Assembly (NCBI GenBank): GCA_037128705.1
Contig: JBAXVX010000002.1
Coordinates: forward strand, 78,361 to 142,360
DNA: 64,000 nucleotides
Reading direction: 5' to 3'
From: Bacteroidota bacterium
GTDB taxonomy: Bacteria > Bacteroidota > Bacteroidia > Bacteroidales > FEN-979
In this document: in pieces, positions 41,886 to 63,802 of the stretch
How the letters are laid out: every line of letters starts with the position of its first letter
How positions within the stretch are numbered: position 1 is the first letter of the stretch
The notes under the pieces: generated by a model
Database searches by the model: none
What the model was told of the DNA's origin: nothing
Seen by the model: the letters and a program-made list of their open reading frames with translations, nothing else
Position numbers and translations under genes: made by a program

Positions 41886-42455
41886 TTAAAATGAAAGATA
41901 TCTGTTGACTCTTTTTGCATATGCTCTGTATTCGTCACCATATTGGGAGGTGAGGAATTGTTCTTCTTTGATCATAATAAAATGATGGATGATCCACGCA
42001 CCAATAAATGCCAGGATATTGATATAATTTGGATTTAAAAGACAGGAGGAGAAGAGGATGAAAATAAATCCCAAATAAAATGGATGGCGGCTGATAGAAT
42101 AAATGCCCTTTGTCTGGAGTTTGTGATTTTCGGAAGAGGATAAACCAAAAACCAAATCCGTATTCAGTCTGAAGGTGGAAAGAAATAATATGACAGTTCC
42201 GGTAATTAAAAAGGCCAATGCGATAATATCAATTAGTTCAACAGGTATAAAAATTCTATAAACATCAATTTTTAGCCCTTTCAGGAGCAGAAATGTCAGG
42301 TTTACGACTACCAGCATTTTTGCAAGAAGAAAAAAGAACACAGGAATGGGGGGGCGACCGAAAATTTGTTGTTTTGTAACGATTGACCGGCCAACAACGA
42401 CTGTTATTAAAAGGATTAATAACAGGGAGGTAATTAAAACGATGGTTGAAATCAT
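41886..42455 (-). CDS. isoprenylcysteine carboxyl methyltransferase (ICMT/PEMT-like) family membrane protein
   Basis: GIYSISRHPFYLG together with a C-terminal EE...YG..Y motif (EEQFLTSQYGDEYRAY). Confidence 0.7.
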   Translation of the reverse strand: MISTIVLITSLLLILLITVVVGRSIVTKQQIFGRPPIPVFFFLLAKMLVVVNLTFLLLKGLKIDVYRIFIPVELIDIIALAFLITGTVILFLSTFRLNTDLVFGLSSSENHKLQTKGIYSISRHPFYLGFIFILFSSCLLNPNYINILAFIGAWIIHHFIMIKEEQFLTSQYGDEYRAYAKRVNRYLSF

Positions 42456-44043: not shown

Positions 44044-45414
44044 TCACCGCTTCAGCAATTCTGTAGCTGCATTCATAAAACAATACACCTCATACTCTTT
44101 GGGATCAATCCAGGGGTCCTTCCATGTACTCCACACAACCGTCACCATCCGCTCCTTCTGATTTATGTGAATGAACTGCCCGAACACCCCCTGGGCCGTA
44201 AATGTACCCTCCAGGTTTGGAAAGTAGGTGGAAGGAGCACTGATGGTATCCTCCCCCCACAACAGGGGTTCACTCAGGTAATCCCATGGCCCCCATGGCG
44301 TTTCAGGCAAGGCCCACCAGTTGTAGCCATAACCGAGGGGGTAGTAGTAACCTTCGGGAAGATACAGGGCTCCCCAATTACATTGTGGCGAATCGGCGGC
44401 CGGGTTCCCCGCCTCAGCTGTCCACCCTTCGGGAAGTAAGGACGTTCCGTTCACCACCCCGTCGTTCAGGATGAACATCCCGAACCGCCCGTAGTCACGC
44501 AGCGTCATGCTCACATTTCCGCAGCCAAACTCGGCGCCGTTGTCCGACTCGAGCAGCCAGTAAGCATCGGACTCCATTCCCATGTTGGCCCAGATCTTCC
44601 GCGACAGGTATGCTGAAAGGGATTCACCACCCAGGGCGGCTTTCAGAACCTCCCCCTCCAGGAAGGTCTCACCGGAATTGTACAGGAACCGGGTACCCGG
44701 TTCACCTGCCCGGGTGAGTTTCGACAATAACTCCATGGTTCCCCCTGCTTTACCATCCACCGCACACTGAAACATGACTCTGAAATCGGAGGAGGGATCG
44801 CGGTAATCTTCATTCCAGGAAGCCCCCGACGACATCTGGAGCAGTTGCCTCACAGTCACTCCATCGTAAGCCGTACCTGTCATCCGGGGGAGGTAAGTGG
44901 TAACCCGGTCGTTGATATTATTGATCTTTCCCTCCTTCAGGGCAATCCCGATCAGTGTGGCCGTAATTGATTTCGCCACCGAGTAGGAGGTCCACCTCGA
45001 AGCGGCATTGTTACCCTCTGCGTAGCGTTCAAGAACGATCTTCCCGTCCTTGATGATCAGTAACCCCGCCACCTGGTTCCTGACAATAAAATCGTCAATG
45101 TTGTAGGTTTTGGTTCCGTTCAGTGTGTATTCAACCGAAGTCAGGGGCCGGGTCGATTCGGGAAGCGGGTAGACGGTGTTTCCGCGTGGAATGGTCCTGG
45201 TAAAGGCGATCTTATCCATATTCCGGTAGGTTCCGGGCTGATATTCAGGTGTCAGCCACAGCAGGTCTTTGAACCTGCCAATTTTATCTTCGGAAGGTTC
45301 GGTCGGGGTGCACTCCTCCCTTTTACAGCCATTGTTAGAAAGGAGCAAAAACCAGGAGAGAATCCACACGTAAATCCAGTTTCTGTTTTTCCGGTTAGTT
45401 CCCTGAGCCTTCAT
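44044..45414 (-). CDS. beta-lactamase-fold serine hydrolase lipoprotein
   Basis: Lipobox SNNGC, the SxxK motif YSVAKSITA and the YxN-like YNSGE. Confidence 0.75.
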   Translation of the reverse strand: MKAQGTNRKNRNWIYVWILSWFLLLSNNGCKREECTPTEPSEDKIGRFKDLLWLTPEYQPGTYRNMDKIAFTRTIPRGNTVYPLPESTRPLTSVEYTLNGTKTYNIDDFIVRNQVAGLLIIKDGKIVLERYAEGNNAASRWTSYSVAKSITATLIGIALKEGKINNINDRVTTYLPRMTGTAYDGVTVRQLLQMSSGASWNEDYRDPSSDFRVMFQCAVDGKAGGTMELLSKLTRAGEPGTRFLYNSGETFLEGEVLKAALGGESLSAYLSRKIWANMGMESDAYWLLESDNGAEFGCGNVSMTLRDYGRFGMFILNDGVVNGTSLLPEGWTAEAGNPAADSPQCNWGALYLPEGYYYPLGYGYNWWALPETPWGPWDYLSEPLLWGEDTISAPSTYFPNLEGTFTAQGVFGQFIHINQKERMVTVVWSTWKDPWIDPKEYEVYCFMNAATELLKR

Positions 45415-48154: not shown

Positions 48155-49210
48155 ATGAAAACCTCATCGATCCTACTATTTGGTGTATACCTTCCCCTGC
48201 TGTTAGCATTGGCGGCAGGTTGTAAAAAGGACTCAGACAATCCACCCTCAACCGGGATGGCCCTGCTCGATGAAACCTTCGCGGCGGTGCAGCAGATAAA
48301 CAACATTAAAAGCCTGGTGGTAGTCCGCAACGATACCCTGATCAGGGAGGCCTATTTCGGATCGGGCGGGGCTGATGTGGCCCACGATGTACGGTCGGTC
48401 ACCAAGAGCATCACCGCCCTGCTCGTTGGAATTGCCATCGACCAGGGATTTATTTCTTCAGTGGATCAACAAATCGGGGGCTTTTTACGACCCCTCGTTG
48501 ATACCATCACCCCTGAAAAAGCGAAAATAACCATCCGTGATCTCCTGACCATGAGCAGCGGATTTGAATGGGATGAACTGACCTCCGTTTCCGGGTATAA
48601 TCTCTGGGCCGGTGCGGCCAACCAGGTGCAATATGCTTTGAACAAACCATTGATTGCGCAACCCGGACAAAGGTTTGCCTACAACTCAGGAGCATTCCAC
48701 CTGTTATCTGTAATATTATCAAGAGCCACAGGTAAGACCACCCTTGATTTTGCCAAACAATATCTGTTCGAACACCTGGAGATAACCACCAGTACCTGGG
48801 AAACGGATAACCAGGGCTACAACAACGGGTCGGCCGGGCTTGAATTGACCCCACACGACATGGTAAAGATCGGTCAGCTTATTTTACATCATGGAGAATT
48901 CCATGGAAAACAGGTTGTTACTTCAAAGTGGATCGATGACCTGGGCAGTTTTAAAATAACCACCAACACGGCGGTTCCCTACGGCACCGGCTACGGTTAT
49001 GGATGGTGGAATGGCCAGTCCCCTCAGGGCAGCTACACATTTGCCATGGGATGGGGAGGCCAGTTCATCATAACCGTTCCAACCCTGGACCTGGTGGTTG
49101 TTGCGACAAACACCTGGAGCGGTGTCCCCTCAGCCGAAGCCAACGATCAGTGGTACCGCACGGTCGACCTGATCATGACCGGTGTCCTTCCCGCAATTGC
49201 GATGTGGTGA
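48155..49210 (+). CDS. beta-lactamase-fold serine hydrolase lipoprotein
   Basis: Lipobox LAAGC, the SxxK motif RSVTKSITA and the YxN-like YNSGA. Convergent with lanM, 44 nt apart. Confidence 0.75.
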   Translation: MKTSSILLFGVYLPLLLALAAGCKKDSDNPPSTGMALLDETFAAVQQINNIKSLVVVRNDTLIREAYFGSGGADVAHDVRSVTKSITALLVGIAIDQGFISSVDQQIGGFLRPLVDTITPEKAKITIRDLLTMSSGFEWDELTSVSGYNLWAGAANQVQYALNKPLIAQPGQRFAYNSGAFHLLSVILSRATGKTTLDFAKQYLFEHLEITTSTWETDNQGYNNGSAGLELTPHDMVKIGQLILHHGEFHGKQVVTSKWIDDLGSFKITTNTAVPYGTGYGYGWWNGQSPQGSYTFAMGWGGQFIITVPTLDLVVVATNTWSGVPSAEANDQWYRTVDLIMTGVLPAIAMW

Positions 49211-49254: not shown

Positions 49255-52200
49255 TCATTCAAAAATAAGGACAGAGGGGAATCTATCGGGGTAGGCCTGC
49301 CTGAGCAAGGCATAACCGATGCCCGAAATTCCCTGGAAGAAGCCAGGATTGATCATTCCTTCATCCGAACCGAATGACAGGTCGTAATGGCCGTTTTTTT
49401 CGGCGAAGTGAAGAACCTGGTTCGTTTTTTTACCTGCCTCCGTCATTAAAGCGCGATCCCCGGTCCTGGCGGCAAAGTACAAAAGTATGTCGGCAAGCCC
49501 CATGTTCCCGCAGCAGAGGTGATCCCTGAATCCCATGTTCATGGAGGATGCCCGTGTCGCCCGGATGGCATTCCGGATATCTGTCTCGACGGTTTGATTG
49601 TTAAAAATATGCCGGGAGGCCAGCCGGGCAAGACCAATCCCCGGGGCCCCATGGCACCAGCTCAGCATATAGGAGGTGCCTGTATTTGGCTTGTCTTTAT
49701 ACTCCCTGAGATCCTGCCAGTTATTCTTCTCCTGCGTAAACAGTGTATTCTCATACCGGATGGCCCGTTCGGCCGTGTCGCGGGAAGCAGCTGTTCCTGT
49801 GAATTCGAACAACTTCAAAAGAGCATAGGCGATGCCGGCCTGGCCGTGCGAAAACCCCGACAGCATTTTATTTCCCGCGAATTTCCATCCGCAGCTTCCA
49901 TCATTATTCTCTGTAAGGTTTTTCAGCAGGTGTTCGCCGCAAAGATCAGCCTTTTCCAGGGCTTCCTGATAGCCTGTAAGTTTGTACAGCGCCAGCATCC
50001 CCAAAATGCATCCGGCACTGCCTGAAATGATATCGAAGGTCTTGTCATCCTGTATCACCCGCGGCCCGACCATGTGACAAACCGATTTTGCATCTTCCAG
50101 GAATGAGGGGTCACCGAGAAATCCGGAAATTTTAATCAGCGTATAAATGGCCGAGGATATCCCGGAGGCAATTCCGATAAATCCGCCCGATCCGGTCATT
50201 CCATATTGCTTCATTTGGGCAAATCCCTGGCGAAGGGATTGGATGGTTGATTCATTTAACCTTCGCAGCGCCGGATCATCCTTTACCGACAAAAGCGCGG
50301 ATAAGAAAAGGGTGACACCCGGAAGCCCGTCATAAAGGTTAAAGGACATAGGCTGTAAACGGAACCGGTCTGTGCCGGGTATGATCCCTGAGGTGATCCA
50401 GGTACAACTGCCGTCCTTTGAAAAGATGGCTTCAGATTGCAGTTTTGCCGCAATTTCTGTTGCAGCCTTCATCAGCGTTTCCGCTGGTGCCGGTTGGATC
50501 GCCCGTGCTGTGATAACCTGTTTTTCTTCCCCTGTTTTGACCTGGTTGTGTTCTAAATCCCTGAAAAGCAGCGCAGCCCGGATGAATTTTACCTGTGTTT
50601 TAAGATCCTCTTCATTCATTTCCGAAACCGAATTTACAACCTGGTCATAGGCTGCTTTGATCATATAGTCAGGACAAACAATTCCATACGGATCCTTGAG
50701 ATCGGTCCTGCCTGATTCAGTCCAGAAAATAGGAAAATCCGTGTCTTCCATCTGCCTCATTTCCGATTTGTTCATGGACCAGAAACTGCCTGATTCCGGA
50801 TTGTGCAGGAATGCACGGCAAAGCATCTCTTTCTGCATGCTGCGCTCCAAACCTTTACGCATATAGTTCGGATTCATCAGGTTTTTGATGATCAACCCAT
50901 ATATCCGGGTCGCCCTGAAAATAAACCGCAGATCTTTTCCTTCAAACAGGCGGACGGGAATTTGAGTGCGATGTTTGACCAGCAACCGGTAAAGGGTGGT
51001 AAACCCCGAAACGATTTCTTCTGTATAGTTGACAGGGGGCTGTTTCCGACCTTGATAAACCGGGATATTCTGGTTTTCCTGGAAGACGATGGGCACGTAG
51101 GATATCCTCATGCTGTCGCTGTTGATATATTGCCACTCCATCCGCTGGTATGGAGATTCATCGTAATCATACCCTCCAATGCCACTGACATCGTAAACGA
51201 ATCCATCTTTACCGAGTATCCATGATGGTAAAAGGCCGGTGCGAAAAACAGAAAATTCAAATTGTGAATTGGCAAGAACATAGGCACTGTCTTCAAATTG
51301 GGTATCTATGTTTTTGCCTTCATGATGCATCACCGATTCAAGATCGATGAGCATAGGTTGTGACCCGGCAGCGATGAGGTTCTCCATGTGGCAATCATTC
51401 CCCCTCAGCGTGTAAATAATTCCGATGAGTGCACCAATACGCCTGTAATAATCCGTAATCTCCTGCCCTGATGTACAGTCTGAGGCCTCAATAAAGCCAA
51501 CCCATCCATATTCACCTTTACTGACAAGGTTGAGGGGTTTCATAGGAGGCGTCAGCCCTTTTTCGTTCAGCCAGTTTATGAAGGCTGACCATGCCACTTC
51601 CAGTGCGAGATTTTTTGGCTTGTAAATCAGTTTCAGCCCCGATTCAAATTTGATGGATATCACTCCCTGGCCATGGTTGTGCGAATCGGAGATCCCCCCC
51701 TGGTAACTTGTTAATTTTCCGGGTGCGGTATCCCTGACGAAATGGGTTGAAAGTTCAGCCATGTCATCCGACAGGTGGTGGATGAATGAAGCAGTGGTGC
51801 GTATCCAGTTGTCGATCAGTATGGTTATGATTTTGGCCAGGGCACTGTATTCAGCGAAGAAATCCTGCCAGCCGTTTTCAACAATCCGGCCAACAAATTG
51901 TTCATAAAAGTGAGTGCCCGGAACCTCAGCCGGAAGCGTCTCAGCCAGGATCCTGAACACCGAAGACTGACGGGTGCTTTTGAAGACCTCGAACTCCAGT
52001 TGAAAAGTCTTTGAAGTATAAAATTGCAACCTGCGCATCAGCAACAGGTTCATCATTTTTTCTGCCTCCCCCGAAAACAAATCCGTTTTCTTTTTCCCGA
52101 CATTCAAATCAAGTTTTTCAACAGCATAAAGAACCAGCGGGGTTAAAAGATGCTGGTAGGGAATTTTATCCGCATATTCCTCCCCGATGCACTGTTTCAT

Positions 52201-52539
52201 TTTCAAAGATAGATCCGTCGGATCATATGATTGAAGGAATCCGATCAGTTCCCTGAAGGTATTTATCCATGCCGGAAGCTGATCCTTATCCCTGAAAGAA
52301 ACCGTTCCGGCCAATTTCCCCAGGTCATCATCGGTAAGCCCGTCCATTTTCAGCCGGTTTTCGAACATCACGGGATCATCCGGGGCAACAATTTTTCTCC
52401 ATTCGGTTCGGAATTTTTCCACTTCCCCCTCTTTTGCCGGATGAAAAACAAACCGGTGCGGTTCATCGATTTTCTCTCGTAAGGTAATGGCCCTGGCGGC
52501 CACGTTGTGCCAGTAGGAATCAGGTAGTTCGGGCCTCAT
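49255..52539 (-). CDS. lanM: class II lanthipeptide synthetase LanM (dehydratase plus LanC-like cyclase), CCG zinc-site type
   Basis: Dehydratase-domain motifs DSHNHGQGVISIKFESGLKLIYKPKNL and NDCHMENLIAAGSQPMLIDLES. Cyclase motifs SGFSHGQAGIAYAL, SWCHGAPGIG and HLCCGNMG. Start taken at MRPELP (ATG 52539-52537), which forms an ATGA overlap with the upstream stop. The longest ORF extends to 52605. Confidence 0.9.
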   Translation of the reverse strand: MRPELPDSYWHNVAARAITLREKIDEPHRFVFHPAKEGEVEKFRTEWRKIVAPDDPVMFENRLKMDGLTDDDLGKLAGTVSFRDKDQLPAWINTFRELIGFLQSYDPTDLSLKMKQCIGEEYADKIPYQHLLTPLVLYAVEKLDLNVGKKKTDLFSGEAEKMMNLLLMRRLQFYTSKTFQLEFEVFKSTRQSSVFRILAETLPAEVPGTHFYEQFVGRIVENGWQDFFAEYSALAKIITILIDNWIRTTASFIHHLSDDMAELSTHFVRDTAPGKLTSYQGGISDSHNHGQGVISIKFESGLKLIYKPKNLALEVAWSAFINWLNEKGLTPPMKPLNLVSKGEYGWVGFIEASDCTSGQEITDYYRRIGALIGIIYTLRGNDCHMENLIAAGSQPMLIDLESVMHHEGKNIDTQFEDSAYVLANSQFEFSVFRTGLLPSWILGKDGFVYDVSGIGGYDYDESPYQRMEWQYINSDSMRISYVPIVFQENQNIPVYQGRKQPPVNYTEEIVSGFTTLYRLLVKHRTQIPVRLFEGKDLRFIFRATRIYGLIIKNLMNPNYMRKGLERSMQKEMLCRAFLHNPESGSFWSMNKSEMRQMEDTDFPIFWTESGRTDLKDPYGIVCPDYMIKAAYDQVVNSVSEMNEEDLKTQVKFIRAALLFRDLEHNQVKTGEEKQVITARAIQPAPAETLMKAATEIAAKLQSEAIFSKDGSCTWITSGIIPGTDRFRLQPMSFNLYDGLPGVTLFLSALLSVKDDPALRRLNESTIQSLRQGFAQMKQYGMTGSGGFIGIASGISSAIYTLIKISGFLGDPSFLEDAKSVCHMVGPRVIQDDKTFDIISGSAGCILGMLALYKLTGYQEALEKADLCGEHLLKNLTENNDGSCGWKFAGNKMLSGFSHGQAGIAYALLKLFEFTGTAASRDTAERAIRYENTLFTQEKNNWQDLREYKDKPNTGTSYMLSWCHGAPGIGLARLASRHIFNNQTVETDIRNAIRATRASSMNMGFRDHLCCGNMGLADILLYFAARTGDRALMTEAGKKTNQVLHFAEKNGHYDLSFGSDEGMINPGFFQGISGIGYALLRQAYPDRFPSVLIFE

Positions 52540-53600
52540 TTTGCAGATTCTTGACCGGTTGTTACTTTCTGTGGATTGATCATGGTTCCGAAATATCCCT
52601 TGCACTCCGGGGGCATTCCTGGCTTATATACCAGTTTAAGGTGATTGATACCGTTCATATAGTGAACCGGAACGAGGTACGAAACGGTTTTTTTACTGGT
52701 ATAGCTTGTCAGTCCCTCCCTCTTTTCCCGGAGCAGGAGATTTTCAGCCTCGAGAAAATCGAAAATTTCGTTCCATCTCGGGTCCCACCTGGGCTGGCTC
52801 AAATCCTTAAGATACATCTCTATTCCGAAAACGGGAAGCACTGTTTTCCCAATGTGAAGATTACAGGAAAAGTGATCAAATTTTAAAGCATAGTTTGTAA
52901 CCATTTTTTGGATCACATCCATCTCCCCGGGCCACCGGATATCCTTTAAATATTCAATGAATGAATCTTCCCTGAGCCTCGAAAGAATGAGTCGGACGGC
53001 TTCTGTTTTCCTGGGGATCATAAACCCTAAAATAGAAATAACCGCATGCTGCGGGAGTGCCTCAAAGCATCTTTTCAGGTTTCTGCCCAAACCGGCTGGA
53101 AATTTTATCCCAAAAAGGATCCGGTATATTTCATCCAGTACTTCAAGCACAAAAAGCCATTGGGATCTCCTGGGGGCTTCCTTTTCAATAATTTTGAAAA
53201 ATATGTTCGGGATTGGATTGAAGGCTGATTCCATGCAGTCGAATTCGAGCCAGAATGATTCAATCCGTTCATGGAGAAAAGAAGAAGCATCTGTCCAGGC
53301 TGAGAAAAGTTCTGAGATTTTTTGCCAGAAAGGGATGCTTAACAATGACGGGGATAACATGGATACCTTGCTTTTACCGGCAATTATGCCGGCTCCTTCA
53401 CCCTCTTTTCTGATCTGCAGGAAAAAATCGCAGGTGGCTTCCCGGTTTCCTAAACGCGTTTCGAAACCGAAGTCTGTTGCAGCGTCGAACGGGAACATGG
53501 AACAAAGTTCTTCGACCGCATGAAGATGCCCGGGAGCAAGCAAAGCGGGCGAAATCCCGGGTGTAATGGCTGAAAAGTGATCACGGAAAGAGTATTTCAT
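52536..53600 (-). CDS. uncharacterised 354-aa protein translationally coupled to lanM
   Basis: Its TGA stop (52538-52536) overlaps the lanM ATG. No signal peptide, TM helix or classic cofactor motif. Shows repeated short strand-like motifs (CDFFLQIR, SFWLEFD, VRLILSRL, FSCNLHIG, FGIEMYLK, LKLVYKPG). Confidence 0.7.
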   Translation of the reverse strand: MKYSFRDHFSAITPGISPALLAPGHLHAVEELCSMFPFDAATDFGFETRLGNREATCDFFLQIRKEGEGAGIIAGKSKVSMLSPSLLSIPFWQKISELFSAWTDASSFLHERIESFWLEFDCMESAFNPIPNIFFKIIEKEAPRRSQWLFVLEVLDEIYRILFGIKFPAGLGRNLKRCFEALPQHAVISILGFMIPRKTEAVRLILSRLREDSFIEYLKDIRWPGEMDVIQKMVTNYALKFDHFSCNLHIGKTVLPVFGIEMYLKDLSQPRWDPRWNEIFDFLEAENLLLREKREGLTSYTSKKTVSYLVPVHYMNGINHLKLVYKPGMPPECKGYFGTMINPQKVTTGQESAK

Positions 53601-53650
53601 CTGAATGATATTGTTTTACGTTATTGGCAAAGAATCCCGGGTTTATAATT

Positions 53651-53658
53651 CAAATGTA
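53651..53658 (-). promoter_or_regulatory. candidate Bacteroidota -7 promoter element (TAnnTTTG) for the 354-aa gene/lanM operon
   Basis: The minus strand reads TACATTTG, about 50 nt upstream of the ATG at 53600. I saw no clear -33 TTTG. Confidence 0.3.
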
Positions 53659-53670
53659 ACAACTAATTCC

Positions 53671-53678
53671 TAGTTTTG
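53671..53678 (+). promoter_or_regulatory. candidate Bacteroidota -7 promoter element (TAnnTTTG) for the export operon
   Basis: The plus strand reads TAGTTTTG, about 25 nt upstream of the ATG at 53703. Confidence 0.3.
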
Positions 53679-53702
53679 TATGAATTCTAATGCAACAAGG
53701 AA

Positions 53703-54509
53703 ATGCTTAGCCGCCAGATTTTCAGAAAAACCTCTCTTGAAAAAATGACCAACATGGATGACCTGGATGAATTGCTCCAGGTTAATTCAATAAAGACATG
53801 GTTATTGTTTTCAGGTATTTGTGCAGTTCTGGCAGGGATGCTTGCCTGGGGATTCCTTGGTACGATCTCTCATAATGTCCAGGGATTCGGCATCATAAAA
53901 ACGCAGGCCCCCTGGAGGGAAGTTCTGGCAGACCGTTCGGGGCAGATTGACTCCATCTTTTGCAATACAGGCGACAGGATTGCGACGGGACAGAAGATGG
54001 CCACGATCTTCGAACTGGAAAATAAGACCTATGTGCCGATCAATTCCCTGGTCCCCGGCCAGGTGGTGGCCATCAATGTAAGGGAGGGAACCTATGTAAC
54101 CAAGGGAACTTCTTTGTTTGAATTAATGCTGGCTGACAAGCAAACGAAGAAACAACCCGAGGTGATTTTCTTCATCGTTGAAAGGGAGGTATCAAAGCTG
54201 AAAAAGGGAATGTTCTGCAACCTCCAGGTTGACAAGCAGGGAGTCCCGCCTGAACTATTAAATGCAGTCATCACTTTCATCTCCGATTATTCGGTTTCGA
54301 AAAATACCATCTCAAAGTATTTCCCGGGTGGGGATATGTCGGATGATATTGGCGACAAGGATTTCTATGAAGTAAGGGCATTTCTGAAGGTTGATCCTGA
54401 TGGGTCGCCGAACCTGGCAAACTTTGACCTCAGTAAATTAAACTGGCTGACCTGCAGGGTAAACATCACCGTTGAACGAAAAAGTCCCATCGCCTTCCTT
54501 TTCAAATAA
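53703..54509 (+). CDS. NHLP/NHLM-type bacteriocin secretion adaptor (HlyD-like), short form without alpha-hairpin
   Basis: The N-terminus FRKTSLEKMTNMDDLDELLQVNSIKTWLLFSGICAVLAGMLAWGF matches the characteristic start of this family. The two half-lipoyl motifs are separated by only about 10 residues. Confidence 0.7.
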   Translation: MLSRQIFRKTSLEKMTNMDDLDELLQVNSIKTWLLFSGICAVLAGMLAWGFLGTISHNVQGFGIIKTQAPWREVLADRSGQIDSIFCNTGDRIATGQKMATIFELENKTYVPINSLVPGQVVAINVREGTYVTKGTSLFELMLADKQTKKQPEVIFFIVEREVSKLKKGMFCNLQVDKQGVPPELLNAVITFISDYSVSKNTISKYFPGGDMSDDIGDKDFYEVRAFLKVDPDGSPNLANFDLSKLNWLTCRVNITVERKSPIAFLFK

Positions 54510-54533
54510 TCCTGCCTATCTTCCCACCAGCCG

Positions 54534-56732
54534 ATGAATCTGAATCCCATCAACCTCCTCCGCACTGTGTATCACCGTCTGACCGGAACCAGGCGGGTTA
54601 AAACCCCGACGGTTTTGCAGATGGAAGCGCTTGAATGCGGAGCTGCATCGCTGGGCATTGTGCTGGCCTATTATGGTAAATATGTACCACTGGAAAAACT
54701 GCGGGTCGATTGCGGCGTATCACGCAACGGGAGCACTGCCGGCAACCTGACTAAAGCTGCACGGAGCTATGGCCTCGAGGTGAAGGCCTATAAAAAGGAA
54801 CCTGAGAAACTCAGGGAGTTGCGCGCCCCGATGATCGTTTTCTGGAACTTTTACCATTTCCTGGTTGTTGAAGGCTTCGGGAAAAATAAAGTGTACCTCA
54901 ATGATCCCGCCTCTGGTCCGCGCGTGGTGGATGACAAAACCTTTGATCACTCTTTCACCGGGGTGGTGATGACCTTCGAACCCGGACCCGGTTTTCAGCC
55001 CGGTGGTGTAAAACCCAGGTTCCTTCCCACCCTGAAGAAATGGCTGAAAGGTTATTACTACAGCCTGCTTTTCCTTTTCCTGGTCGGACTGGCCCTGATC
55101 ATTCCCGGGTTGGCGATCCCGATCTTTTCCAAAATCTTTGTAGACCAGATCCTGATCAAAAACTCAGAATCGTGGATCATCCCCCTTCTGGTTGGACTTA
55201 CGCTTACAACCCTGCTGCGTGCAATGTTATCGTGGATACAGCAGCACAGCCTGATCCGGTTTGAGATTAGCATTTCGCTGAAGAACGCTTCAAAGTTCTT
55301 CTGGCATCTGCTTCATCTGCCCATGTCATTTCATACCCAGCGTCCGGCGGGCGATATCACCATGCGTATTGGGATCAATGACCAGGTTGCGGGGTTGCTT
55401 TCAGGCCAGCTTGGAAACACCCTGCTCAATCTCTTCATGATCGTATTTTATGCGATGCTGATGTTTTATTACAGCATTCCGCTTGCACTGATTGCCATCG
55501 CCATATCCTTGCTGAATATCCTGGCCCTGCGGTTCATTTCGCGTAAACGGGTCGATTCAAATCAAAAGCTGCTACAGGATAACGGTAAAATGTACGGCCT
55601 TTCATCGGCCGGCCTGCAGATGATAGAATCAATCAAGGCCAATGCCTCTGAATCAGATTTTTTTGCCAAATGGGCCGGGTACCAGACCAAACTGCTGAAC
55701 ATGCAGCAAAAACTGGGCATACTCACCCAAACCCTGCAGGTAATCCCCGTATTTCTTACCATGATGAGTACCCTGATCATCCTGGTCATGGGATCAGGAT
55801 TTATCATCGACGGGGTGATGACCGTTGGAACCTTTGTTGCATTCCAGTCGGTAATGGCAAGTTTCAACCAGCCGATTGTCTCCCTGGTAAACCTTGGAAG
55901 CTCACTGCAGGATGTCCAGGGCGGGCTGAAAAGGATCGATGATGTATACAATTATCCTGCTGCCGGTACGAATATATCGGCTGGAGAAACAGCAGCCGTC
56001 AATAAAATGGTGAAGCTCCAGGGATATATTGAGCTGAAAAATATCACCTTTGGATACAGCCCGCTGGAATCGCCCCTGATCACCAATTTTTCGCTCAGCC
56101 TGAAACCGGGGTCCCGGGTAGCCATAGTGGGCAGGACCGGCTGTGGAAAATCAACCCTGGCCAACCTGGTCAGTGGTCTGTACGATCCGTGGGAAGGTGA
56201 GATCCTGCTGGATGGCAAACGCAGGGCTGATATCCCCCAGGCTACCCTGAGTAATTCCATATCCATGGTCGATCAGAACCTTTTCCTGTTCGAAGGCAGC
56301 GTAAAAGATAATATCTCCTTCTGGGATCAGACCATCGCAAACAAGGATATCATCCAGGCAGCCAAAGAGGCCTGCATCCATGATGACATCGCCGCGCGAC
56401 CGGCTGCCTATGAGAGTCATGTTGAAGAGAATGGAAAAAATTTCAGCGGGGGCCAGCGGCAGCGCATTGAAATAGCAAGAGCGCTGGCAGCCAAGCCATC
56501 CATTCTTATTCTCGATGAAGCTACCAGCGCCCTGGATGCACAAACAGAGCAGGCGATCGATATCAACATCCGGAAAAAAGGCTGTACCTGCCTCATCATT
56601 GCGCACCGGTTAAGTACCATCCGCGATTGCGATGAAATCATCGTGATGAGTCTTGGACGGATCGTTCAGCGCGGGACCCATGAGGAATTAATGAGAAAAA
56701 TAGGATTATACCAGGACCTGATAAAAGAATGA
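54534..56732 (+). CDS. bacteriocin/lanthipeptide export ABC transporter with an N-terminal C39 peptidase domain (LanT/NHLM ABC1-like)
   Basis: C39 motifs LQMEALECGAASL (catalytic Cys), NFYHFLVVEG (His) and LNDPA. Six-TM domain. Walker A GRTGCGKST, signature FSGGQRQR and Walker B ILILDEATSALD. Confidence 0.9.
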   Translation: MNLNPINLLRTVYHRLTGTRRVKTPTVLQMEALECGAASLGIVLAYYGKYVPLEKLRVDCGVSRNGSTAGNLTKAARSYGLEVKAYKKEPEKLRELRAPMIVFWNFYHFLVVEGFGKNKVYLNDPASGPRVVDDKTFDHSFTGVVMTFEPGPGFQPGGVKPRFLPTLKKWLKGYYYSLLFLFLVGLALIIPGLAIPIFSKIFVDQILIKNSESWIIPLLVGLTLTTLLRAMLSWIQQHSLIRFEISISLKNASKFFWHLLHLPMSFHTQRPAGDITMRIGINDQVAGLLSGQLGNTLLNLFMIVFYAMLMFYYSIPLALIAIAISLLNILALRFISRKRVDSNQKLLQDNGKMYGLSSAGLQMIESIKANASESDFFAKWAGYQTKLLNMQQKLGILTQTLQVIPVFLTMMSTLIILVMGSGFIIDGVMTVGTFVAFQSVMASFNQPIVSLVNLGSSLQDVQGGLKRIDDVYNYPAAGTNISAGETAAVNKMVKLQGYIELKNITFGYSPLESPLITNFSLSLKPGSRVAIVGRTGCGKSTLANLVSGLYDPWEGEILLDGKRRADIPQATLSNSISMVDQNLFLFEGSVKDNISFWDQTIANKDIIQAAKEACIHDDIAARPAAYESHVEENGKNFSGGQRQRIEIARALAAKPSILILDEATSALDAQTEQAIDINIRKKGCTCLIIAHRLSTIRDCDEIIVMSLGRIVQRGTHEELMRKIGLYQDLIKE

Positions 56733-56739
56733 TCAAACC

Positions 56740-59649
56740 ATGAAAAACAACCCCTTTGCGGAAGCCATGCTTACACTGGGTACCCCCGGAAAAACCGGGG
56801 CGAACCAGTCTTTTACCATGGCCCATCTTCAAAGTGTGTGGTATGTAACCAAAGGGCATATCGACCTCTTTTCCGTGCGGCTTGAAAATGATCAGCCGTC
56901 GGGGTCAAGGTTCTTTCTGTTTACAGCCAGCCAGGGGGAACTCCTTTTTGGAATGCGGAGTGATCAGTTTGGAAATGAGCAGGCCCTGCTTGCGGTTCCA
57001 TCAACCGATGCTGAGATCATCGTGACCGGGATTGACCAGGTTAAGGAGCTGATAAAGCGACCGGGGTTTTTTGATACCGGGGTGTCGCTGATTGAAACCT
57101 GGATTGGTCATTTGTTATCCGGAATTTCCAAGGATCTGAATTCACGCACCGACGTGATGATTGATTCTGACACAGTGTTCACGCTGGAAGACAACATGAA
57201 GTTCCGCTCAAAAAAAGGGCTATTCTGGGTCGAATTTCTGTCGGGGAATGCATTGTTCCTTGGAATGAGGGAGATTCGGGACAACAGCGAACGGAAAAAA
57301 TTCCCGGTCTCCCAGGATTCATGGCTTCAAACAACAGAATCATCCGATATCAGATCCTGCAAGACCGGTGAACTTTTACTCCAGGATGATTTCTGGGATC
57401 ACATGGAAAATTTCTACCAGGTGATCTTCTACTGTGACTTTTTGAATACAAACCTGATGACGGTTGATGAATTCAACCGCCTCAGCGAAAAAGCGGTTCA
57501 CGATTCAAATATCCTTTCCGCTTCCCTTTTTAAAATAGCCTCTGTTATCAATGATAACATCCGGAAAACTTACATTGAGGCCGGCGTGAATCCATTGGTT
57601 TCAGCATGTAAGGCGGTGGCCGGTTATGCCGGCATTTCCGTTACCTTGCCGCCCAGGCCTAAAAGCGATGATGCGCCTCCTTTAACCCTGAACGACATCG
57701 CCCATGCCTCACGGTTCAGGACAAGGAAGGTGAGACTTGCCGGCGATTGGTGGAACAAGGACAACGGCCCGCTGCTTGCCTTCACCAGGGACAGCGACTT
57801 TCCCATTGCCCTGATACCCAAGTCGCCGGGAAAATATGAGTATATCAGTCCGGCCGAGAATTTAAAACAATTGCTAACGGCTGAATCCGCCTCATTGCTG
57901 GCTGCAGAAGCCCGCCAGTTTTACCGGCCCTTTCCCGACCGTCCCATCAAGGTTCTGGATCTGATCAGGTTCAGCTTTAAAAATTCCATCCGGGATATTA
58001 TGCTGATGATTCTGGTAGGAGTGGCAGGAGGCATACTGACCATATTGGTTCCCATGCTAACCGGGACCATCTTTGACAGTGTCATTCCCAAATCAGATTA
58101 CACCCAGCTTTACGTTTACGCCCTTGCGCTCTTTTTCAGTTTTGTTGCCATAGCGATTTTTCAGCTGGTACGCAGTTTTTCCATGATCAGAATTGAAACG
58201 AAACTCGATTTCCTGCTTCAGTCGGCCATCTGGGACCGGCTGCTCAACCTGCCTGTCCCGTTTTTCAGAAAATACCAGGCCGGGGAACTGGCAGCCAAGG
58301 CAAACAGCATCATGATGCTCCGCAAGATCCTTTCAGATACGGTGATCTACAGTGTGCTGGGCTCTGTTTTCCTGGTATTCAACTTCATTCTCATGTTTTT
58401 TTATGATGCCTCCCTGTCGCTTTATATCTTAGGCTTCTCCCTGTTATCCTATATTTTCATCTTCTTTGTCGGGAAAAAGATCCAGAAACGGCAGTATCTT
58501 ATCATTCAGCTGAACAACAAGATTTTCGGGATGCTGCTGCAGCTGTTGTCCAGTATCTCCAAAATCAAGATCGCGGGTGCTGAAATTCATGCATTTTCTC
58601 AATGGGCTGAAAAATATGCCACAAACAAGCGTCAAACCTATGAAGTAAGAAAACTGAATCAGTGGATTTCGTTGCTCACTACTTTGTGGCCGCTCCTGAT
58701 TACGATCTTTGTTTTTGCCACCATCGCCTGGCAGGTCCCGCATACCCTGTCAACTGGTGAGTTCCTGGCATTCTATACCGCCATGACTACAACCATCGCT
58801 TCATTTCTTCAGCTGGGGATGGCCGGCATTGCACTTTTCATGGCGATGCCCTTACTGGAAAACATTCGTCCGATACTGGAAACACTCCCGGAAAATGTTT
58901 CCTTAAAAGCCGAAATAAAGGAACTTTCGGGCGAAATCGAGGTGAACAATGTAAGCTTCAGGTACCAGCCCGATGGTCCGCTTGTGCTGGATAACGTTTC
59001 GTTGCAGGTACAACCCGGTGAATTTGTAGCCATCGTGGGGACATCCGGTTCCGGAAAATCAACCCTGCTTCGTTTACTGCTTGGTTTTGAAACCCCCGAA
59101 AGCGGTTCTGTCTATTACGACCGGCAGGATCTCTCCACATTCGACCCTGCTTCGGTGAGACGACAGGCGGGAACTGTTCTTCAGCAAACACAGCTGGCTC
59201 CCGGTAACATCCTGACCAACATTACGGGAGTGACCGATGCTACCTTCGAGGATGCCTGGGAGGCTGCCAGAAGTGTGGGACTGGACGAAGACATCAAGCA
59301 GATGCCCATGGGAATGTATACCGTGATCACCGGTGGCCTCAGCACGATCTCAGGTGGCCAGAAACAACGCATCATGATCGCCCGGGCTATTGTCAACAGG
59401 CCCCGGATCCTCTTTTTCGATGAAGCAACAAGCTCCCTGGATAATAAAACTCAGTTTACAGTAAGCGCCAGTCTCGAAAAACTACAGGCATCCCGTGTTG
59501 TGATTGCCCATCGTCTTACCACCGTACAGCACGCCGACAGAATCTACGTTATGGATCACGGTAAGATCGTTGAATCCGGATCATTCGCCGAATTGATTGA
59601 AACAGGAGGAAAATTCAATGAGCTGGTGAAGCGCCAGATGGTTGAATAA
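56740..59649 (+). CDS. second bacteriocin-system ABC transporter (permease/ATPase) with a ~400-aa N-terminal extension including a cNMP-binding-like fold (NHLM ABC2-like)
   Basis: 969 aa. The N-terminus (HIDLFSV...GSRFFLFTASQGELLFG) resembles a cyclic-nucleotide-binding beta-roll. TM domain, Walker A GTSGSGKST, signature ISGGQKQR and Walker B ILFFDEATSSLD. Starts 7 nt after the previous gene. Confidence 0.85.
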   Translation: MKNNPFAEAMLTLGTPGKTGANQSFTMAHLQSVWYVTKGHIDLFSVRLENDQPSGSRFFLFTASQGELLFGMRSDQFGNEQALLAVPSTDAEIIVTGIDQVKELIKRPGFFDTGVSLIETWIGHLLSGISKDLNSRTDVMIDSDTVFTLEDNMKFRSKKGLFWVEFLSGNALFLGMREIRDNSERKKFPVSQDSWLQTTESSDIRSCKTGELLLQDDFWDHMENFYQVIFYCDFLNTNLMTVDEFNRLSEKAVHDSNILSASLFKIASVINDNIRKTYIEAGVNPLVSACKAVAGYAGISVTLPPRPKSDDAPPLTLNDIAHASRFRTRKVRLAGDWWNKDNGPLLAFTRDSDFPIALIPKSPGKYEYISPAENLKQLLTAESASLLAAEARQFYRPFPDRPIKVLDLIRFSFKNSIRDIMLMILVGVAGGILTILVPMLTGTIFDSVIPKSDYTQLYVYALALFFSFVAIAIFQLVRSFSMIRIETKLDFLLQSAIWDRLLNLPVPFFRKYQAGELAAKANSIMMLRKILSDTVIYSVLGSVFLVFNFILMFFYDASLSLYILGFSLLSYIFIFFVGKKIQKRQYLIIQLNNKIFGMLLQLLSSISKIKIAGAEIHAFSQWAEKYATNKRQTYEVRKLNQWISLLTTLWPLLITIFVFATIAWQVPHTLSTGEFLAFYTAMTTTIASFLQLGMAGIALFMAMPLLENIRPILETLPENVSLKAEIKELSGEIEVNNVSFRYQPDGPLVLDNVSLQVQPGEFVAIVGTSGSGKSTLLRLLLGFETPESGSVYYDRQDLSTFDPASVRRQAGTVLQQTQLAPGNILTNITGVTDATFEDAWEAARSVGLDEDIKQMPMGMYTVITGGLSTISGGQKQRIMIARAIVNRPRILFFDEATSSLDNKTQFTVSASLEKLQASRVVIAHRLTTVQHADRIYVMDHGKIVESGSFAELIETGGKFNELVKRQMVE

Positions 59650-59689
59650 AACTTAAATTTGGGCTGATTAACGCCATTGCAAAATCCTG

Positions 59690-61249
59690 ATGACAACATC
59701 CGTCACATCCTTTTCTCAGCTTCAGTTATCCATCCTGCTGCTGGCTACCATTGGCTTCCTCTCCAGCCTCTGGTTCCATGTCAGGGATAAAGAAAACCTG
59801 GCGATTGGATTACTGGTTCTCACTGCATTCTTGGTTTTCAGCTTTGCAGCCCTCCTCGATCCATTCCTGAACCTGTGGGATGAACGGTTCCATGCACTGG
59901 TCGGAAAGAACCTGATGAACCATCCATTCATGCCAACCCTGTATGACGACCCGGTGGTCAGCATGGCCTACGACCATTGGGATAATTACCATATCTGGAT
60001 TCACAAGCAACCGCTGTTTTTATGGCAGATCGCACTTAGTTTCAAACTCTTTGGAATTTCAGAGTTTTCATTACGGATTCCCGACATCATTTTAGGGATG
60101 ATCCTCGTGTTCATCGGATACCGTTCAGGGAAGTTGCTTGTAAATAAAAACGTGGGGTATCTCACGGGAATTCTGACCATTTCCACAATTTACCTGACCG
60201 AACTGGTATCGGGAAGGCAGGAGATAGACCACAATGATTTTTCGTTTCTCGTCTATGTTTCACTGAGCATCTGGTCGCTGATAGAATATCATTTTACAAA
60301 AAAGAGATACTGGATCTTTCTTATCGGGGCGTTTTCGGGGATGGCGATCCTGTGTAAATGGGTGGTGGGATTCCTCGTCTTTCTGGGGTGGTTTGTCCTG
60401 AAACTGCAGCAAAAAAGGTTCAGGCCGTCGCACTATTATGATTTCCTGGTTGCCTTGGGAATAACCTTGCTGATGGCCGTGCCGTGGCAGGTATATACCT
60501 TTATCTGTTACCCGAAAGAGGCCATCCAGGCCTTTACCATGAATACATCGCACTTTCTTTCGGCTGTGGATGGACACCGGGGCACCCTGTTGTACCATTT
60601 CGAGAAGGCCGGCACCATTTATGGCCTCGTGATGTCATTGTTGATCATTCCGTCCTTATATGTTTTTTACAGGAACAGCAGGGATAAGATGGTGGCCGTC
60701 TCACTGCTTGTCATGGTCATTGCGGTTTATCTTTTTTTCACCATCACCGCGACAAAAATGTCCTCCTTTACAGTGGTGGTATCCATGGTCATATTTATTG
60801 CCCTGGCGGCCCTGATTGACCATGCTGTCCAATATACAAACCGGTATATCAAAAAACCGGGAGCCAGGAGCCTGCTGTTCGCGGGACTCATCATTTTAAT
60901 TGTTCTCCTGCGATTTGATATTGGACTTCTCCGGGAGAGGCATACAACCCGGAATGAGGAAAACCATTACACCCGGATGCTCATGCACAACCGGGAAGTT
61001 TTTAAATCGCTCAACCTGCCCGATAATGCTGTGCTGTTCAATGTGAAAGGAAGGCATTACCTCGAAGCCATGTTTTACACCGGACTGCCCGCCTACAATT
61101 TTATCCCAACCAGAGATCAGTACCAGGACTTAAAATCGAAAGGACGCTGCATCGCAATATTCAGACCGGCCGATCTCCCGCTTCCGGATTATCTTTCCAC
61201 CGATCCCACCACCATCATCCTGAACAAGGAAATAACAGGATACGATTAA
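59690..61249 (+). CDS. GT-C fold glycosyltransferase (GT39 PMT / ArnT-like), polytopic membrane protein
   Basis: Twelve or more TM helices. The first-loop DE motif LWDERFHALVGKNL (D64 E65 at 59879-59884) is typical of the PMT/ArnT family. Starts 40 nt after the ABC gene on the same strand. Confidence 0.7.
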   Translation: MTTSVTSFSQLQLSILLLATIGFLSSLWFHVRDKENLAIGLLVLTAFLVFSFAALLDPFLNLWDERFHALVGKNLMNHPFMPTLYDDPVVSMAYDHWDNYHIWIHKQPLFLWQIALSFKLFGISEFSLRIPDIILGMILVFIGYRSGKLLVNKNVGYLTGILTISTIYLTELVSGRQEIDHNDFSFLVYVSLSIWSLIEYHFTKKRYWIFLIGAFSGMAILCKWVVGFLVFLGWFVLKLQQKRFRPSHYYDFLVALGITLLMAVPWQVYTFICYPKEAIQAFTMNTSHFLSAVDGHRGTLLYHFEKAGTIYGLVMSLLIIPSLYVFYRNSRDKMVAVSLLVMVIAVYLFFTITATKMSSFTVVVSMVIFIALAALIDHAVQYTNRYIKKPGARSLLFAGLIILIVLLRFDIGLLRERHTTRNEENHYTRMLMHNREVFKSLNLPDNAVLFNVKGRHYLEAMFYTGLPAYNFIPTRDQYQDLKSKGRCIAIFRPADLPLPDYLSTDPTTIILNKEITGYD

Positions 61250-63223: not shown

Positions 63224-63436
63224 ATGCAATATTAAGCAAAGCGTCGACAATAGCATAAATATGGGGGAAATATCAGGGTCATTTTTTACCTTGAAAAATA
63301 AATCACAGGTTCTGTGTAGGTAATTCGGATTTATTAATTATCTTTAACAGATTCATTATCAACCCTTTGTTGTTATGTATTTTCCCAAACAACATATTTG
63401 ATTTTTAATTCAGTTTCAATTTGTTATAAAGACATC

Positions 63437-63802
63437 ATGACCAAGATTCTTTTTATCGACGACGATTCCTCTTTTGTTGAAGCAATGAAGTTCCTGTTAG
63501 AGCAAAACGGTTTCAGTGTAGTTACAGCCTGTGGGGGTCAAGATGCTTTTCTCCTTGCCAAGGAGCAGGTTTTTGATCTGGTCATCACCGATGTGCTGAT
63601 GGCGAAGAGTCATGGAATGGAGGTCATCCAGCATATGCGGCAGTTCTACCCTAAAACCAAGATAATCACCATTACAGGGGGCGGCTGGGCCTCACCACAG
63701 TTTCATCTCGACTCGGCCCGCCTCTTCGGCTCCGACGGCTTTCTTGCCAAACCCTTTTCCATTAAAGATCTGCTCCTGGAAATCCAACGCGTATTCAGAT
63801 AA
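63437..63802 (+). CDS. single-domain response regulator (receiver)
   Basis: MTKILFIDDD, DLVITDVLM (phospho-acceptor Asp context) and AKPF. Start refined to the ATG at 63437. Confidence 0.8.
   Translation: MTKILFIDDDSSFVEAMKFLLEQNGFSVVTACGGQDAFLLAKEQVFDLVITDVLMAKSHGMEVIQHMRQFYPKTKIITITGGGWASPQFHLDSARLFGSDGFLAKPFSIKDLLLEIQRVFR

Follow-up and report, generated by a model that had tools for sequence, protein, structure and literature searches.

Within a 64,000-nt stretch of an uncultured Bacteroidales genome (contig JBAXVX010000002.1), which we call the window, we analyzed a class II lanthipeptide locus in which the synthetase gene lanM follows directly on a gene for a 354-aa protein, labeled X354 here (52536-53600, minus strand). 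The Bacteroidota-like character of the genome noted in an earlier sequence-only reading of this DNA agreed with the presence of type IX secretion system (T9SS) sorting domains nearby, and the close relatives of the locus were all from Bacteroidales/Bacteroidota metagenome-assembled genomes (MAGs). The genes and features of the locus are as follows:

49255-52539, minus strand: lanM, class II lanthipeptide synthetase, 1094 aa from ATG
52536-53600, minus strand: X354 gene, 354-aa ABBA-fold prenyltransferase as judged from its model, with a predicted peptide (Trp/Tyr) acceptor
53601-53702: divergent control region, 102 nt, with two back-to-back -7 promoter-like elements
53703-54509, plus strand: adaptor, short HlyD-like membrane-fusion protein, 268 aa
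54534-56732, plus strand: ABC1, C39-peptidase/permease/ATPase exporter, 732 aa
56740-59649, plus strand: ABC2, permease/ATPase partner, 969 aa, with a 283-aa N-terminal extension
59690-61249, plus strand: GT-C (PMT_2) glycosyltransferase, 519 aa, a neighbor that is probably outside the cluster

The open reading frame (ORF) coordinates bore out the earlier description of two divergent operons that share a 102-nt spacer, with gaps of 24, 7, and 40 nt between the adaptor, ABC1, ABC2, and GT-C genes on the plus strand. The end of the X354 gene and the start of lanM share the ATGA at 52536-52539, and this overlap suggests that translation of the two genes is coupled. Position and overlap of lanM had been given correctly, and only the length of 1095 aa needed correction: the mechanical ORF reaches a GTG at 52605, homologs are 1094 aa long, and the protein has 1094 aa when read from the ATG.

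That the locus belongs to class II was clear from LanM, which matched TIGR03897 (851.6 bits, cut-off 304), DUF4135 (E 8e-111), and LANC_like (E 1e-64). The dehydratase and cyclase domains are thus both present by hidden Markov model (HMM) search, and the protein could be aligned to the LicM2 and CylM structures. Its zinc-ligand motifs are SHG at 897, WCHG (Cys962), and CCG (Cys1009 and Cys1010), and as judged by these motifs LanM belongs to the ProcM-like 'CCG' type, in which three of the zinc ligands are Cys. WCHG and CCG were also found in all of the related LanMs that we read (13/13). LanMs of the CCG group are associated with relaxed substrate specificity and with many precursors.

To mark promoters we used TAnnTTTG, which we take to be the Bacteroidota -7 consensus. 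The window holds 44 copies, a chance number, and 14 of these 44 sit 17-51 nt upstream of a start codon on the same strand, as compared with 1.3 expected; given this enrichment at start codons, the motif is a usable promoter marker in this genome. Copies in such positions include the following:

53651-53658, minus strand: before the X354-lanM pair
53671-53678, plus strand: before the adaptor and the export operon
59654-59661, plus strand: 29 nt before the GT-C ATG
Other examples: 2354, 5054, 9151, 14779, 25485, 35789, and 36328, plus strand; 9121, 39641, 41090, and 61844, minus strand

No start-positioned copy was found ahead of lanM, ABC1, or ABC2. These positions therefore support two divergent operons and a GT-C gene capable of separate transcription. 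A scan of the cluster for sigma-70 promoters and intrinsic terminators was set aside, as its counts were at or under shuffle expectation and uninformative for a Bacteroidota genome.

Fold and family of X354

X354 was identified only by structure prediction and a full profile search, because sequence models (Pfam, NCBIfam, and a PDB profile) gave nothing. A word-index homology search returned 74 relatives, all of them unnamed or 'hypothetical' and none with a Pfam domain; the few from a named source were Bacteroidota MAGs. In an alignment of 33 sequences, 26 positions were invariant; Glu, Asp, Arg, Lys, His, Tyr, and Trp are frequent among them, and they include E47, R49, D58, E119, D121, R197, R203, E261, H320, K322, K334, and Y336. 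The AlphaFold2 model made from this alignment (pLDDT 91.2, pTM 0.90) displayed a helix-helix-strand-strand order that is repeated five times. When the model was compared with the PDB by Foldseek, the top 50 matches were ABBA prenyltransferases without exception, with probability 1.0 and E-values from 8.5e-6 to about 0.02 (23 matches at E <= 0.001). They included enzymes acting on indoles (5-DMATS 6zs0, IptA 7w8u, AmbP1, PriB, TleC, and CymD), on phenazines or naphthalenes (EpzP and the CL190 prenyltransferase), and on peptides (LimF, PagF, PirF, and KgpF). The invariant charged residues lie mostly on barrel strands as i/i+2 pairs (E47/R49, E119/D121, H320/K322, and K334/Y336), a pattern that would be expected of lumen-lining residues of a diphosphate/Mg site. 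ABBA enzymes hold the diphosphate in the barrel lumen.

When 1.84 billion representatives were searched with a profile and without filters, X354 fell in a large family, with 3741 matches at E <= 1e-3, of which 1191 reached E <= 1e-30. Two members that were scanned, P0087 and P0198 (~700 aa), carry an N-terminal X354-like domain followed by a C-terminal SQHop_cyclase_C domain; the P0087 cluster comprises several Nostoc strains and is annotated 'prenyltransferase/squalene oxidase repeat-containing protein'. All 354 residues of X354 aligned to the N-terminal half of P0222 (WP_322705818.1), a Nostoc fusion, at 30% identity (E 2e-47), and the alignment keeps almost all of the invariant residues, with conservation of E47, R49, D58, W117, E119, D121, R197, R203, E261, H320, K322, K334, and Y336. 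Given the fusion to a terpene cyclase in Nostoc, the only sensible reading is that the X354-like domain must supply the prenylated substrate. Together, the fold and this homology lead us to predict that X354 is a divergent ABBA-fold prenyltransferase that transfers a prenyl group to a peptide. The earlier view that the architecture was not a recognizable one has to be given up on this point: the coupled enzyme, a predicted ABBA prenyltransferase, is a homolog of the P domain of the Nostoc fusion, and prenylation of lanthipeptides by enzymes of this kind was characterized in 2024-2025.

Other domain combinations were seen within the family. In P0093, P0105, and P0108 (Leptolyngbya and others), fusions of 586-622 aa combine an X354-like domain with a C-terminal 2OG-Fe(II) oxygenase domain, and in P0101, P0120, P0129, and P0143 (690-730 aa) the X354-like domain is C-terminal to a half of ~330 aa that had no Pfam match. 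A word-index search with the Nostoc P-like domain gave 16 matches, none of which was named Moorena.

Export genes and related loci

The export genes had been read as an NHLP-type triad, and two of the three members scored above the curated cut-offs: ABC1 matched TIGR03796 at 1056 bits (cut-off 853.3) and ABC2 matched TIGR03797 at 851.2 bits (cut-off 709.4). The adaptor scored 88.9 bits against TIGR03794, under the cut-off of 156.2, with TIGR03794 still its best-scoring family. It also matched Biotin_lipoyl_2, HlyD_D23, and HlyD_3, and has an N-terminal transmembrane helix and a barrel-sandwich domain. At 268 aa against the 421 positions of the TIGR03794 model, it covers only the N-terminal part and the barrel-sandwich segment, and both this length and the position in the operon are conserved across related loci. 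By these matches, the triad is made up here of two full members and a shortened adaptor. ABC1 contains a Peptidase_C39 domain (E 3e-35) with the catalytic Cys (ECGAAS), His (YHFLVV), and Asp (NDPA) motifs present, from which it is predicted to cleave leaders after Gly-Gly.

The long N-terminal extension ascribed to ABC2 is real, as the TIGR03797 match covers residues 284-967 only. The extension is kept in all relatives, including the Longimicrobium ABC2 (962 aa), with 41-64% identity in related loci, and had no sequence-model match with Pfam on nine homologs or with a PDB profile. An AlphaFold2 model from a shallow alignment of seven sequences (pLDDT 76.6) showed two beta-roll modules with helices after each, so that residues ~1-245 (56740-57474) are modeled as two tandem cyclic-nucleotide-binding-like beta-rolls. 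The Foldseek matches were to CRP and to PKA/PKG regulatory subunits with their tandem cyclic-nucleotide-binding domains (E 3e-8 to 1e-5), with low TM-scores because the orientation of the domains differs. By eye, the canonical arginine of the phosphate-binding cassette was not evident (GELLFGM...NEQALLAV), and binding of nucleotide by the modeled extension is therefore doubtful.

About 20 related loci were read, 18 of them in a first set. In these first 18, wherever the contig was long enough, the genes for an X354 homolog and LanM diverge from those for an adaptor of 268 aa, an ABC1 of 732 aa, and an ABC2 of 968/969 aa. The prenyltransferase gene is also adjacent to lanM in L003-L006, L002, L010, L017, and L019. 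Across homologous Bacteroidota loci the core of LanM, X354, and triad is thus conserved, and the GT-C gene is not. In P0237, from a JGI metagenome, a prenyltransferase-cyclase fusion of cyanobacterial type that is 64% identical to the P-like domain of the Nostoc fusion is followed by LanM with overlapping stop and start codons, like the overlap seen in the window. The Longimicrobium relative L021 encodes a prenyltransferase, an NHLP precursor, an outer-membrane factor (OEP), a full-length 419-aa adaptor, and both ABC proteins.

Many relatives carry a terpene cyclase as well. A stand-alone SQHop_cyclase_C protein of ~350 aa occurs in six of the 18 first loci and in several later ones, and the loci with an MstE-like cyclase are L001, L002, L009, L013, L015, L016, L040, L043, and L046. 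The L001 protein matched MstE, a class II terpene cyclase of the monodomain type, over its whole length (E 1e-60). As prenyltransferase and cyclase are separate genes in these relatives, the logic of the NctPC fusion of cyanobacteria, compared below, is split into two genes in the Bacteroidota family. In the window, no homolog of the MstE-like cyclase was found in 25 kb around the cluster, and the prenyl group would therefore stay linear here.

Further genes recur at related loci. AbiEii-like nucleotidyltransferase genes (~355-372 aa) are present in L001 (11073-12140), L015, L016, L025, L037, L040, L043, and L045, often beside the MstE-like cyclase or between precursor genes, and are absent from the window. 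In L025 (8045-10487), the prenyltransferase has a PolyA_pol-type nucleotidyltransferase before it and, after it, an FGE-sulfatase-like protein (232 aa) and an S-adenosylmethionine (SAM) methyltransferase (206 aa); two NHLP precursors and export genes are also present.

Precursors, proposed pathway and neighboring genes

Related loci contain from one to ten NHLP precursor genes of ~100 aa, with leaders that end in V-[AS]-G-G; precursors of relatives scored 92.9 and 79.1 bits against TIGR03793 (cut-off 50.9). From these loci we recovered 40 distinct cores. Cys occurs together with Ser/Thr in 37/40, which gives them lanthionine potential. Trp is present in 31/40 and Trp or Tyr in 38/40, and in 32 of these 38 it lies within the first six residues; position 1 of the core is Trp, Tyr, or Phe in 18/40. 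Trp makes up 5.2% of core residues as compared with 0% of leader residues. By analogy, this composition fits prenylation of an aromatic residue beside a thioether ring, as in MppE. The most unusual feature of the locus in the window, which the sequence-only reading overlooked, is that no precursor gene lies within reach.

Together, these data suggest that the locus probably encodes the enzymes and the exporter for a prenylated class II lanthipeptide, and that it does so without substrate genes of its own. The earlier expectation that the product is a further-modified lanthipeptide is upheld as probable. In the proposed pathway we infer catalytic activity, acceptor residue, donor chain length, and order of steps. 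Precursors with NHLP leaders, encoded elsewhere in the genome, would be bound through the long leader, and the CCG-type LanM would dehydrate Ser/Thr and close thioether rings with Cys. With a prenyl diphosphate as donor, X354 would place an isoprenyl group on an aromatic side chain close to where the core begins, most likely Trp and possibly Tyr, in a transfer that is probably leader-dependent and follows cyclization. The C39 domain of ABC1 would then cut after Gly-Gly, with export by ABC1, ABC2, and the short adaptor. Supply of precursors in trans is established for ProcM/prochlorosin systems (PMC7268733), and by analogy the NHLP precursors are probably encoded elsewhere in this genome too.

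Several results weigh against this pathway, some of which concern the missing precursors and others the identity of X354. A six-frame search of the window with 11 related precursors (tblastn) and the NHLP HMM gave nothing better than E 0.1. The window is identical base-for-base to contig SESF01011123.1 of GCA_005795915.1 over the 4 kb of overlap checked, and the 9.3 kb that this contig adds past the right end of the window had no NHLP match. Among relatives, L003 and L005 have no precursor within 10 kb on either side; between one and three are present in the 70-74% relatives L004, L006, and L025. A scan of metagenome contigs with a leader pattern, aligned from the closest clade, returned 26 loci, among them some from the sister assemblies SESA, SESC, and SESH, and none from SESF01, the assembly of this genome. 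These absences would be accounted for if the locus were a decaying or orphaned remnant whose precursors have been lost, leaving enzymes without a product in this organism. We consider such decay unlikely, given that the six genes are all intact and full length and that the family-invariant residues, the CCG/WCHG zinc ligands, and the C39 triad motifs have all been kept. As compared with L003, dN/dS is 0.16 for LanM, 0.24 for X354, 0.18 for the adaptor, 0.06 for ABC1, and 0.11 for ABC2, similar to the flanking housekeeping genes (0.05-0.23); these five cluster genes are under purifying selection. Moreover, the precursor-less layout has been retained in two independent lineages, and orphan precursors distant from enzymes occur in these communities: NHLP precursors were found on contigs of 82-297 kb where no gene for LanM, a prenyltransferase, or a transporter lay less than 3 kb away, and the flanks that were scanned contain genes such as those for methionyl-tRNA synthetase, sensor kinases, HipA, and an MFS transporter. 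These orphan precursors lie among housekeeping genes; dispersed precursors therefore exist in these communities.

The other results that count against the pathway bear on X354 and its partners. X354 had no Pfam or NCBIfam match at E <= 0.01, a PDB sequence search with the family profile gave no match, and TM-scores to solved structures are moderate (0.4-0.55, about 0.5 for known enzymes) at an identity of <=13%, so that the assignment as a prenyltransferase is one of fold and remote homology. In L025, a 74% relative, an X354 homolog occurs with precursors and a transporter and with no LanM on the 15.6-kb contig; an X354-type enzyme is therefore not strictly bound to LanM, and the family may serve more than lanthipeptides. 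Since no sequence model of any prenyltransferase family matched and the best fold matches are small-molecule indole prenyltransferases, X354 might instead be a non-catalytic ABBA scaffold that binds the leader for LanM, or might prenylate free Trp or indole. Either role seems quite improbable to us: the invariant acidic and basic residues and Tyr are set on barrel strands at i/i+2, as for a diphosphate/Mg site, X354-type genes consistently lie beside precursors, LanM, and MstE-like cyclase, the same domain is fused to a terpene cyclase in Nostoc, and Trp and Tyr are enriched in the cores of relatives. The characterized MppC, moreover, rejects free Trp (PMC12715784). A precursor-less 'hub' is a more ambitious form of the proposed pathway that we put forward only tentatively and regard as rather unlikely. 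Here a promiscuous CCG LanM and its coupled prenyltransferase would mature dispersed, hypervariable NHLP peptides into a lipidated, prochlorosin-like library in uncultured Bacteroidales of environmental metagenomes, and prenylation might fall on the Trp/Tyr that is frequent at position 1 of the core. If so, the residue left at the N-terminus by cleavage after Gly-Gly would be a prenyl-aromatic one, and this chemotype has yet to be described among lanthipeptides. A bolder version could add periplasmic glycosylation by the neighboring GT-C.

The GT-C protein (PMT_2, E 4e-17) had been counted by the sequence-only reading as part of the system, a placement our comparison does not sustain. As a functional member of the cluster it would use a polyprenyl-phosphate sugar to glycosylate the lanthipeptide in the periplasm after export, which we regard as very unlikely. 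The gene does lie on the same strand as ABC2 and 40 nt downstream with no convincing terminator between, and its adjacency to the cluster has been retained in L003, a relative that is 87-98% identical. It is missing from every other related locus and carries a -7 promoter-like element of its own, listed above. In L003, moreover, ~800 bp with an opposite-strand ORF separate ABC2 and GT-C, and the adjacency is shared together with HD and T9SS-tail neighbors, so that it looks like ordinary local synteny of two close genomes. Most likely, GT-C is a neighbor with no relation to the cluster. The ORF between ABC2 and GT-C in L003 (3345-3986) encodes a 213-aa CMAS-like methyltransferase in the place of the 40-nt gap of the window, and this stretch is an insertion or deletion at the border of the cluster.

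Some precursor candidates were rejected or stand apart. Gly-Gly/Cys-rich small ORFs in the window, found with a regular expression and an ORF screen, were rejected as chance-like, and the short called ORFs of the window had no RiPP-family (ribosomally synthesized, post-translationally modified peptide) match in NCBIfam. A near-identical orphan NHLP core, SFLDCMTFVTACGGPQCQ, was seen in L044 (3001-3315, SESC01000324.1), L047 (765-1088, Ga0194039_1010866), and L051 (3001-3309, on a 278-kb contig), far from any LanM and with one substitution in L051. The L047 sample also contains the organism of the window, and the L051 sample contains L003. Neither precursor could be assigned to the genome of the window or to that of L003; the core of the L047 precursor also occurs unchanged in a different MAG (SESC01).

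Beyond the cluster, the lanM side contains two genes for beta-lactamase-fold (serine hydrolase) lipoprotein-like proteins, at 48155-49210 (plus strand) and 44044-45414 (minus strand). The nearer one matched 3-succinylated cholic acid synthase below threshold, at 148 bits for a cut-off of 800, and lies beside lanM in L003 only. About 7 kb from the X354 gene, at 41886-42455 (minus strand), is a gene for a membrane protein of 189 aa that belongs to the PEMT/ICMT (isoprenylcysteine carboxyl methyltransferase)/DUF1295 group, and the P0016 locus has a DUF1295/Steroid_dh protein ~6 kb from LanM. Such enzymes act on prenylated substrates; the occurrence of ICMT-like genes near prenyltransferase loci is probably coincidence, and we rejected the gene in the window as a tailoring enzyme, as conserved linkage was not shown. 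To the right of the cluster (window 63398-63802, and past the window end in L022 1751-9820) are two single-domain response regulators and two very large PAS/GAF hybrid histidine kinases (1052 and 1377 aa). LytTR/histidine-kinase regulators also border the related loci L001 and P0016, and it is possible that the kinases and response regulators that flank the clusters are their regulators.

Comparison with known systems

A terpenoid-lanthipeptide pathway of the NctPC type was reportedly described by Hubrich et al. in Chem in 2024, with 'steromaze' as its product. According to PMC13290415, which summarizes lanthipeptide prenylation by NctPC and ChrPC, NctPC geranylgeranylates Trp and then cyclizes the prenyl chain; the pathway is also covered in PMC13647313 and PMC12715784. 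In these accounts, NctPC resembles the system predicted for the window in several ways: the ABBA prenyltransferase is poorly similar to cyanobactin enzymes, its gene lies directly upstream of and overlaps that of a class II LanM, and the acceptor is a Trp in the core of a long-leader precursor, as is predicted here. Over its full length, X354 also shares 30% identity with the P-like domain in Nostoc fusions whose architecture is the one published for NctPC, and from this architecture and the genus we infer that the Nostoc fusion is NctPC. The differences are that the cyclase is fused there, whereas X354 is stand-alone in a window without a cyclase and a linear prenyl group is predicted, and that the host there is a cyanobacterium, whereas here it is an uncultured Bacteroidales member with NHLP (TIGR03793) leaders in related loci and no precursor in cis.

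The MppC/MppM/MppE system of Moorena producens likewise pairs a stand-alone ABBA prenyltransferase with a class II LanM (PMC12715784). MppC, encoded next to LanM, prenylates Trp of the LanM-cyclized peptide in a leader-dependent manner; it acts after ring formation and strictly needs a long, structured leader of the Nif11 type that ends in Gly-Gly (PMC12715784). In MppE, Trp82 of a LanM-cyclized heptapeptide is geranylated at C5, and the Nif11-type leader is required (PMC12715784). This system, compared with X354 by description, differs in its Nif11-type leader and cyanobacterial origin, and the donor of MppC is geranyl diphosphate (GPP) and its site indole C5 (PMC12715784). The supplement on MppC (PMC12715784) contains no Bacteroidota example.

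Prochlorosin/ProcM systems share with the window and its relatives the CCG zinc site, conserved leaders, hypervariable cores, and precursors that may be encoded at a distance from the synthetase (PMC7268733), and class II families with NHLP leaders were cataloged in 2020 (PMC7268733). The export triad of NHLP/Nif11 systems (Haft et al. 2010, as cited in PMC7268733 and PMC4289311) comprises TIGR03794/03796/03797 with a C39 Gly-Gly peptidase, as here. Relative to prochlorosin and triad systems, the locus has an extra prenyltransferase, the leaders of its relatives are NHLP and not Nif11, and the adaptor is shortened to 268 aa; no outer-membrane factor is encoded at the locus, unlike in Longimicrobium L021 with its OEP gene and 419-aa adaptor. 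The cyanobactin enzymes PagF, LimF, PirF, and KgpF have the ABBA fold of X354 and prenylate peptide side chains including Trp and Tyr. In contrast to the leader dependence predicted for X354, they are leader-independent and act on N-to-C macrocycles, with <=11% identity to X354 and no Pfam model in common.

Prenylated or terpenoid lanthipeptides have so far been characterized mainly from cyanobacteria. The locus belongs to a coherent, uncharacterized set of at least 70 Bacteroidota sequence clusters, in which NHLP leaders are combined with a ProcM-like synthetase, a stand-alone enzyme of the same prenyltransferase family, and export genes of a distinctive kind. As the X354 family has no Pfam or NCBIfam model, automated annotation calls its members 'hypothetical' and gives no prenyltransferase label; naming the family, with about 3,700 representatives, would aid genome mining for lipidated ribosomal peptides. 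The practical value is moderate, as the predicted chemistry is known in principle and the product is not predictable without precursors. A precursor-less layout under purifying selection, for its part, provides a test case for trans-acting maturation outside cyanobacteria.

Overall, prenylation of lanthipeptides by ABBA enzymes is already known from work of 2024-2025 (PMC12715784, PMC13290415). What is new at this locus is the uncultured Bacteroidales host and the use of a stand-alone NctPC-P-like enzyme with NHLP leaders, together with the shortened adaptor, the modeled cyclic-nucleotide-binding-like extension of ABC2, and the precursor-less layout.

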